Assembly: GCA_016839585.1 (NCBI GenBank)
Contig: JAEOTZ010000082.1
Location: forward strand, 1-10,612
DNA length: 10,612 bases
Reading direction: 5' to 3'
Origin: Promethearchaeota archaeon
GTDB taxonomy: Archaea; Asgardarchaeota; Lokiarchaeia; Sigyniarchaeales; SOKP01
The number at the start of each line of letters is the position of its first letter. Within the stretch, counting starts at the first letter, position 1. Below the pieces are notes generated by a model, which was given only the letters and a program-made list of their open reading frames with translations, was not told the DNA's origin and searched no databases. Below, piece by piece: positions 642 to 10,612 of this stretch. A program made the position numbers and the translations under genes.

Positions 642-773
642 TGCAGGGAGTGGGATTTGAACCCACGTACTCCTGTGAGACCGGATTTCTCATCAGAAAT
701 TGCATTAATCAACGGTAATTGTTTTTAACAGATCTTGAGTCCGGCACCGTTGACCAGGCTTGGTTATCCCTGC
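642..773 (-). tRNA. trnL: tRNA-Leu(CAA) with 47-nt canonical intron (37/38)
   Basis: Acceptor GCAGGGA/TCCCTGC plus discriminator A; anticodon arm CCGGA-CT-CAA-G^A-TCCGG (anticodon 737-735); long variable arm CTC-ACAG-GAG; T arm GTGGG-TTCAAAT-CCCAC. Mature length is 85 nt and CCA is not encoded. Confidence 0.97.
687..733 (-). other. tRNA-Leu intron with strict bulge-helix-bulge motif
   Basis: 5' GGA-CTCA-AG^A-TC ... GA-TGAG-AA^A-TCC 3': a 4-bp helix CTCA/TGAG, two 3-nt bulges and both flanking helices. Confidence 0.93.
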
Positions 774-9852: not shown

Positions 9853-10386
9853 ATGCAAAGTTCATGGATATTTAAAGTAATTGTGGCAGGGGCTGGCGGA
9901 GTTGGAAAAACTGCTATGATAACTCGTTATTGTACAGGGAGATTCGAAGAAGGGTATAAAATGACTATAGGTGCAGGTTTTCATACAAAATCTGAAATTC
10001 TTGATACAGGAGAAGCTGTTAAAATGCAACTCTGGGATTTTGCAGGAGAAAAACGTTTTCGCGAACTTCTACCTGACTATTGTAAAGGGGCTAGTGGAGC
10101 ATTCATATGTTTTGATATAAGTGATTATGATACATTTAGAGAAATACCTGAATGGCTTAAGATCATCCGCCAAAAGGCTGGATTTATACCAATAATTCTC
10201 ATGGGTATGAAATGGGATCTACCCAACCATGAAGTTGTTTACGAAATTGCAAATGATTATGCTGAAAAAGCTAAATGTAACCAGTGTGTATTTTGTTCTT
10301 CGAAAGGAAATATCAATATAACAGATTCTTTTCAGGCTATGGCAAAATGGTTAATCTATTATGCCACTCAAACAAATAAGATATAA
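9853..10386 (+). CDS. Rab-like small GTPase (Ras superfamily)
   Basis: G1 GAGGVGKT, G2 T(IG), G3 WDFAGE, G4 MKWD, G5 SSK. RabF-like motifs IGAGF, KMQLW, RFREL, YCKGA and ICFDIS are present. There is no C-terminal prenylation Cys. Confidence 0.93.
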   Translation: MQSSWIFKVIVAGAGGVGKTAMITRYCTGRFEEGYKMTIGAGFHTKSEILDTGEAVKMQLWDFAGEKRFRELLPDYCKGASGAFICFDISDYDTFREIPEWLKIIRQKAGFIPIILMGMKWDLPNHEVVYEIANDYAEKAKCNQCVFCSSKGNINITDSFQAMAKWLIYYATQTNKI

Positions 10387-10500
10387 TATTAAAATTCTGA
10401 TTTTAATCTGGTTTTATTAAACAGTAAAAGCTAAATATAATATTTAATCTAATTATTATAAAATAATCATAAAAAGCGCCTCTGTAGCTCAGTTAGGTAG

Positions 10501-10527
10501 AGCACCGCCTAAATTATGTGTGCCTAA
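10501..10527 (+). other. tRNA-Asn intron 1 (27 nt, position 22/23)
   Basis: AGGT-AG^A-GCAC ... GTGT-GCCT-AA^A: 4-bp helix AGGT/GCCT, 3-nt bulges, inner helix GCAC/GTGT, weak outer helix. Confidence 0.8.
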
Positions 10528-10538
10528 AGCACCCGGCT

Positions 10539-10569
10539 AAGTAAGCTTGATTTCACAGCTTCTCCGGAA
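10539..10569 (+). other. tRNA-Asn intron 2 (31 nt, position 33/34)
   Basis: CCGG-CT^A-AG-T-AAGCT ... AGCTT-CT-CCGG-AA^G: 4-bp helix CCGG/CCGG, 3-nt bulges and an inner hairpin. Removal creates CT-GTT-AA. Confidence 0.85.
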
Positions 10570-10595
10570 GTTAACCGGGCGGTCGCATGTTCGAG

Positions 10596-10612
10596 ATTCT
10601 GTCTGATGATAT
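10596..10612 (+). other. Probable tRNA-Asn intron 3 (position 59/60), truncated by the window edge
   Basis: After T-loop TTCGAG the expected T-stem partner CATGC is absent. TTCG-AG^A fits the 5' half of a BHB motif. Confidence 0.6.

Follow-up and report, generated by a model that had tools for sequence, protein, structure and literature searches.

The tRNA-Asn(GUU) gene of a Lokiarchaeial genome starts at position 10478 (forward strand) of the window, the whole 10,612-nt stretch of DNA that was analysed, runs past its end, and is interrupted by four introns with BHB motifs. The preferred reading, which is held with a probability of about 90%, is that of a functional, single-copy gene whose transcript would be processed by an (alpha-beta)2-type splicing endonuclease (EndA) together with RtcB, intron 4 being removed before intron 3. 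The earlier note, which was made from the window alone, had counted three introns; this count was one short, as the fourth intron (63/64) lies beyond the window.

The window is the entire contig C73, whose final 127 nt are an exact match of the first 127 nt of contig C72 and are absent from all other contigs. The assembly contains 45 exact 127-nt contig junctions of this kind. The C73/C72 join is crossed without interruption by an independent, public JGI metagenome contig, Ga0209977_10004000, which is 96% identical over 3.2 kb. The Asn gene of this sister strain differs from that of the joined contigs at a single site within intron 1, where the substitution changes a G-U pair of the inner helix to G-C; this is one change in the 195-nt gene, compared with about eight expected from the 4% difference of the surrounding 3.2 kb. 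An extension of the contig had been expected to reveal a contiguous 3' exon, CATGC-CAGAGGC. The 3' part does lie directly downstream on C72, but the contiguous exon is absent, CATGC being split (CAT^GC) by intron 4 and the acceptor strand being CAGGGGC. The 3' end after intron 4 reads GC-CAGGGGC-G, in which a G instead of the perfect-complement A gives a U4-G69 wobble pair. Because the 3' part was found directly downstream on the adjoining contig, two outcomes that had been named in advance, a pseudogene and a split tRNA, are set aside. The region upstream of the gene is very AT-rich, and TATA-like strings there are uninformative.

Most contig ends of the assembly (G000) have a 127-nt overlap with one other contig, and a GC-rich island is found near 12 of the 45 junctions. 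With these overlaps, much further scaffolding of the assembly is possible, and genes cut at contig ends, such as tRNA-Asn, can be rejoined.

Table 1. Parts of the tRNA-Asn(GUU) gene and tRNA and GTPase genes around it; window positions unless L002 (contig C72) is given, "joined" marking window numbering continued across the contig join, and ^ marking the cut within a bulge.
Feature	Coordinates	Strand	tRNA positions or content	Central helix, bulges, inner helix
Exon 1, 23 nt	10478..10500	+	1-22: acceptor 5' strand, U8 A9, D-stem 5' strand, D-loop to G22	
Intron 1, 27 nt	10501..10527	+	22/23	AGGT/GCCT; bulges AG^A, AA^A; inner helix GCAC/GTGT
Exon 2, 11 nt	10528..10538	+	23-33	
Intron 2, 31 nt	10539..10569	+	33/34	CCGG/CCGG; bulges CT^A, AA^G; inner 2+5 bp
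Exon 3, 26 nt	10570..10595	+	34-59: anticodon GTT, anticodon-stem 3' strand, variable loop, T-stem 5' strand, T-loop up to G59	
Intron 3, 33 nt	10596..10628 (joined); first 17 nt inside window (10596..10612), remainder on C72 (L002 111-143)	+	59/60	TTCG/CGGG; bulges AG^A, TT^C; inner helix 9 bp
Exon 4, 4 nt, CCAT	L002 144-147 (C72)	+	60-63	
Intron 4, 30 nt	L002 148-177 (C72) = 10633-10662 (joined)	+	63/64	TTCC/GGAA; bulges AT^A, AA^G
Exon 5, 10 nt	L002 178-187 (C72)	+	64-73	
tRNA-Leu(CAA), class II	642-773	-	one 47-nt intron at canonical 37/38	full BHB, CTCA/TGAG; 6-bp outer helix
Ras-family small GTPase gene	9853-10386	+	Pfam Ras, E = 6e-37; about 90 nt upstream of tRNA-Asn	
Interrupted tRNA gene	L002 258-400 (C72)	-	about 70 nt beyond Asn 3' end, convergent	
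tRNA-Leu(TAG)	L002 644-728	-	next after the 258-400 tRNA	

The 5' part of the gene consists of the acceptor strand GCCTCTG, TA, the D-stem strand GCTC and a loop containing GG, while exon 3 ends with the T-stem 5' strand GCATG followed by TTCGAG (Table 1). The introns that had been proposed at 22/23 (27 nt), 33/34 (31 nt, before the wobble base) and 59/60 are read directly in the sequence, the second of them sitting immediately 5' of the wobble base G34, and the proposed 11-nt exon 2 is confirmed as positions 23-33.

In the published motif rule applied here, which matches the Methods of 10.64898/2026.10.13.758758, the central helix joins the last four bases ahead of the 5' bulge to the last four intron bases ahead of the 3' bulge, and cleavage falls after the second base of each 3-nt bulge. 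All four introns have central helices with 4/4 pairs (Watson-Crick or G-U) and two 3-nt bulges, and excision after the second base of each bulge would restore the cloverleaf exactly. The inner helices of introns 1-4 comprise 4, 2(+5), 9, and 2(+6) bp, and the outer helices 1, 0, 3, and 2 bp. In every intron, one or both of the flanking helices (h, h') reach two or more contiguous pairs, introns 1 and 2 being of the HBh' type; the relaxed BHB motifs described earlier for these two, with a 4-bp central helix, 3-nt bulges and poor outer helices (just 1 and 0 bp), are therefore those found. A search for motif and cloverleaf paths over a 600-nt stretch, without preset boundaries, returned the same four boundaries with zero mismatches, and the sole other zero-mismatch answer was the same solution with a chance fifth jump at the discriminator. 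When the introns were shuffled with the boundaries fixed, the canonical BHB test was passed by 47, 12, 682, and 97 of 20000 sequences for introns 1-4, respectively (0.24%, 0.06%, 3.4%, and 0.5%). Structure prediction on the precursor, starting at D-stem position 10, gave a fold with the inner hairpins of introns 2, 3, and 4. A genome-wide search for paralogous copies of the four introns, which would be a sign of recent transposition, yielded nothing beyond matches of 11-14 nt that are attributable to chance.

Mature positions 51-60 recur inside intron 4 as a 10-nt copy, ATGTTCGAGC, at L002 150-159, the original running from window positions 10587-10595 into exon 4. At the variable position 59, the intron 4 copy and the exon agree with each other, both having G here and both having T in G006, G009, and G016. 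This single change faintly hints that the internal copy may reflect an origin by local duplication or gene conversion.

Removal of the four introns leaves 74 nt, which ARAGORN folds as a tRNA-Asn(gtt) cloverleaf, U4-G69 being the one stem pair that is not Watson-Crick. The spliced product preserves each of the 21 stem pairs as well as the conserved nucleotides, and the discriminator read from the sequence is G73, as expected for tRNA-Asn. The unspliced DNA of the gene yields no tRNA with ARAGORN, and the gene was undetected by ARAGORN run with and without introns and by the Rfam tRNA model, as the earlier note had anticipated for standard scans. Genome-wide, some two dozen tRNAs are recovered by the Rfam model and 29 by ARAGORN with introns allowed, none of them Asn and several of the latter visibly mis-typed, although the genome is rated 99% complete. 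Since both tools find so few genes in a genome of this completeness, non-canonical or multiple introns must conceal roughly half of its tRNA set.

A second copy of the Asn gene was not found in the assembly by BLAST with the gene, and a purpose-built BHB path finder located the anticodon GTT genome-wide only at this gene. The census of the finder is incomplete, about 20 credible anticodons having been recovered, so that the uniqueness of the gene leans mainly on the sequence-similarity and model searches. In reversed-sequence controls, the finder gave zero hits at 0.5 mismatch or less over 137 target strands; with five jumps and half a mismatch allowed, it produced false hits, such as the anticodons AAA and ATT. 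The mature T-arm junction, which would mark a spliced copy or an intron-free allele, was not found among public metagenome contigs, where short tRNAs are seldom assembled.

The same gene was traced through the genus. In 19 other species, a syntenic Asn orthologue adjoins the same Ras-like GTPase gene, with zero to four interruptions distributed over 18/19, 22/23, 33/34, 59/60, and 63/64 and with a nearly invariant mature sequence. The orthologues of G007 and G008 have no interruptions; eight genomes have that at 59/60 only; G006, G009, and G016 have that at 63/64 only; G022 combines 33/34 and 59/60; G017 and G023 combine 18/19 and 59/60; G013 and G015 combine 22/23, 33/34, and 59/60; and G021 has 18/19, 33/34, and 59/60 together with a 60-nt insert at 63/64. 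The boundaries in G017 and G021 come from spliced alignment only, the BHB finder having given no solution for either. Because presence and absence are precise around a constant mature sequence, the interruptions are identified as introns by evidence that is free of any motif. For the 59/60 intron, the BHB fold is kept across 11 relatives in 92% of cells, compared with 24-50% for slid partners, and four pairs are altered on both sides, a number reached by 0 of 500 shuffles.

In the Asn gene of G021 (L007 1448-1677), the first half of the 60-nt insert at 63/64 resembles the 30-nt intron 4, and no BHB was found by the path finder for the insert as a whole. The insert may consist of two nested or adjacent introns, in which case that gene would have five introns in all. 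In G006 (L009) and G009 (L010), whose Asn gene has the 63/64 intron only, the gene is inverted relative to the Ras-like GTPase gene; in the other 17 of the 19 relatives, the two genes are oriented as in the window.

Three alternatives to the preferred reading were weighed. One concerns the register of intron 1, which may also be drawn as 25 nt (GGTA/TGCC), with the 5' cut one base 3'-ward and the 3' cut one base 5'-ward. This register was the second solution of the path search; it also has 4/4 central pairs in this genome and is the only one with 4/4 pairs in G013 and G015, the closest relatives that bear intron 1. Its product would be a tRNA of 76 nt, in which the D-loop has 11 nt and C13 is mismatched with A22. 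The 27-nt register restores the D arm exactly as it stands in the intron-free orthologues; in the sister strain, the substitution costs the shorter register one pair and strengthens the longer one. The 25-nt register is accordingly regarded as unlikely, with a small but real chance of being the true one.

The other two alternatives deny that the gene is whole or working. It might be a decaying, insertion-filled pseudogene, with Asn decoded by an unassembled or unrecognised tRNA gene, and hidden tRNA genes do exist in this genome, where standard tools miss about half of the expected set. Decay is hard to reconcile with an intact set of 21 stem pairs and conserved nucleotides after splicing, with canonical central helices and bulges in all four inserts, and with one difference in 195 nt from a strain that is 4% divergent around the gene, a difference that moreover improves pairing; nor did BLAST, ARAGORN with introns, or the path finder reveal a second Asn-like sequence in the assembly. 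This reading is very improbable. Still less credible, to the point of being almost certainly wrong, is an origin of the 3' part at another locus, whether by an assembly artefact or as a split, trans-spliced tRNA. The gene does span a contig break, and the assembler kept C73 and C72 apart, but the exact 127-nt overlap is unique, as at 45 other junctions of the assembly, the whole gene lies on one contig in an independent assembly, and the two acceptor strands pair with each other. The intact spliced cloverleaf, the unique overlap, and the independent contig across the join are the grounds for rejecting the readings as a pseudogene, an assembly artefact, or a split tRNA.

Under the preferred reading of a functional gene with four introns, the motifs of the two T-arm introns share bases. 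Two of the four 5' bases in the central helix of intron 4 come from intron 3: both T's of TTCC/GGAA are the last two bases of that intron, and the 2-bp outer helix uses the G's preceding them. The motifs of introns 3 and 4 cannot coexist, as intron 3 needs these very bases for its own 3' bulge and central helix. When intron 3 was removed first in the computation, the bases before intron 4 became AGCC and 2/4 pairs remained; no BHB for intron 4 was found after this excision, even at a relaxed 3/4 central pairs. When intron 4 was removed first, intron 3 acquired a full hBHBh' motif, with the 5-bp T stem serving as its outer helix. Under the motif rule, intron 4 must go before intron 3 because its central helix uses intron 3 bases, and the predicted order of removal is thus 4 and then 3. 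In the same model, the interlock would keep the 4-nt exon joined to a larger piece at every step. Even odds are given to the full proposal that the T-arm introns form an interlocked pair with a fixed order, in which the cuts around CCAU would be mutually exclusive in time and the micro-exon would never be a free tetramer.

The eukaryotic enzyme for tRNA splicing descends from the archaeal splicing endonuclease. Two PF01974 genes are present in the genome, encoding proteins of 201 and 200 aa, and RtcB is encoded as well. The two EndA subunit genes map to the regions C2:77426-77650 and C39:1832-2080. The 201-aa protein has as its best match the catalytic subunit of Aeropyrum pernix (3P1Z chain B, E = 7e-36) and retains the Tyr/His/Lys motifs of EndA alpha. 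Its loop, GINKPR, aligns without gaps to DVEKPR of 3P1Z_B, which places the Lys, the conserved loop residue required for non-canonical introns, opposite chain residue 44 by count. PMC3241643 describes the Crenarchaea-specific loop as a novel RNA recognition site for non-standard introns, and Asgard archaea are described to have an (alpha-beta)2 EndA with an L1 loop (PMC5829648). In the 200-aa paralogue, Phe stands opposite the His of the KEHS motif in M. jannaschii EndA, and because the catalytic His is replaced, the protein is assigned as a structural, beta-like subunit. The endonuclease looks like the (alpha-beta)2 broad-specificity kind, its assembly and its cleavage of HBh' motifs being predictions from the two protein sequences; the broad-specificity enzyme that the earlier note had postulated thereby gains an alpha subunit with the loop Lys and a putative beta subunit without the catalytic His. 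Since introns 1 and 2 have no real outer helix, their cleavage would depend on the acceptance of HBh' motifs by EndA, a property predicted by homology. The close EndA homologues come from records titled Promethearchaeota or Promethearchaeia, which puts the genome within the Loki lineage, and a Ras-family GTPase gene lies just upstream of tRNA-Asn, both in agreement with the Asgard-like origin suggested for the genome.

In the proposed processing route, transcription would yield a precursor of about 195 nt, not counting its leader and trailer. [quoted passage not shown] Introns 1 and 2, which have separate motifs, could be removed in any order, while intron 4 of the interlocked T-arm pair would leave first, followed by intron 3 with the restored T stem as its outer helix. 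RtcB would join the exons of 23, 11, 26, 4, and 10 nt, and CCA would be added after splicing because it is not encoded.

Several neighbouring genes were also characterized. The tRNA-Leu(CAA) is the sole tRNA in the window seen by the Rfam model. For the interrupted tRNA gene at L002 258-400, ARAGORN forces an Arg(tct) with a 58-nt "intron", and the path finder gave no solution; its relatives match in two blocks, skipping about 31 nt, and for this reason at least one intron of the gene is absent from them. The Ras-family GTPase gene has 89-92% identity in 19 of 19 relatives and is a handy anchor of synteny. The other genes of the window encode an amino-acid kinase, a GHMP kinase, a 4-HFC-P synthase, a His-biosynthesis barrel protein, an RPA-like ssDNA-binding protein, and a PfkB kinase, and no mobile-element genes were found near tRNA-Asn among the window genes.

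Multi-intron tRNA genes with relaxed motifs are known from Thermoproteales, with a reported maximum of three introns per gene (PMC4033280). The tRNA-Asn gene resembles them in its non-canonical, relaxed-BHB introns and in the predicted (alpha-beta)2 EndA with a CSL/L1 loop (Sugahara 2008; PMC4033280). It differs from them in having four introns and, whereas related introns recur between genes in Thermoproteales, in having introns without paralogous copies in the genome. Among Asgard archaea, 92-95% of the tRNA genes in Atabeyarchaeia and Freyarchaeia are reported to contain introns (PMC11291895), and the 2026 preprint 10.64898/2026.10.13.758758 gives up to five intervening sequences per Asgard tRNA gene, of which tRNAscan-SE misses about 30%. 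The published Asgard cases share with tRNA-Asn the presence of more than one non-canonical BHB intron in a gene, at sites in the D arm, anticodon loop, and T arm, the failure of standard annotators, gains and losses that recur among close relatives, and two EndA paralogues. Both papers centre on Jordiarchaeia and Atabeyarchaeia, and Lokiarchaeia are not named in the main text of the preprint.

Heavily interrupted Asgard tRNA genes are thus already published, and tRNA-Asn adds a Lokiarchaeial example. The searched text of PMC11291895 and 10.64898/2026.10.13.758758 contains no intron motifs that share nucleotides and no 4-nt exon; relative to this searched literature, the nucleotides common to the motifs of two introns and the 4-nt exon are new. 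An ordered processing of multi-intron pre-tRNAs with BHB motifs has been described in the red alga Cyanidioschyzon merolae (Soma 2013; PMC3728597). The likeness lies in several BHB motifs per precursor, removed in a preferred order; the algal motifs, however, fold independently and their order follows stability or position (PMC3728597), whereas in tRNA-Asn the order would be forced, the neighbouring intron supplying part of one motif.

The gene is a clear example, open to checking, of how an essential tRNA gene present in a single copy can be invisible to standard annotation. The same syntenic gene, with zero to four interruptions over five positions within one genus, provides material for a study of intron gain and loss. 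The nucleotides shared by introns 3 and 4, together with the 4-nt exon, yield a simple and testable prediction on the order of splicing by the archaeal endonuclease. If the interlock is true, the splicing signal of one intron would have come to include part of its neighbour, and this dependency would be what lets so small an exon survive.
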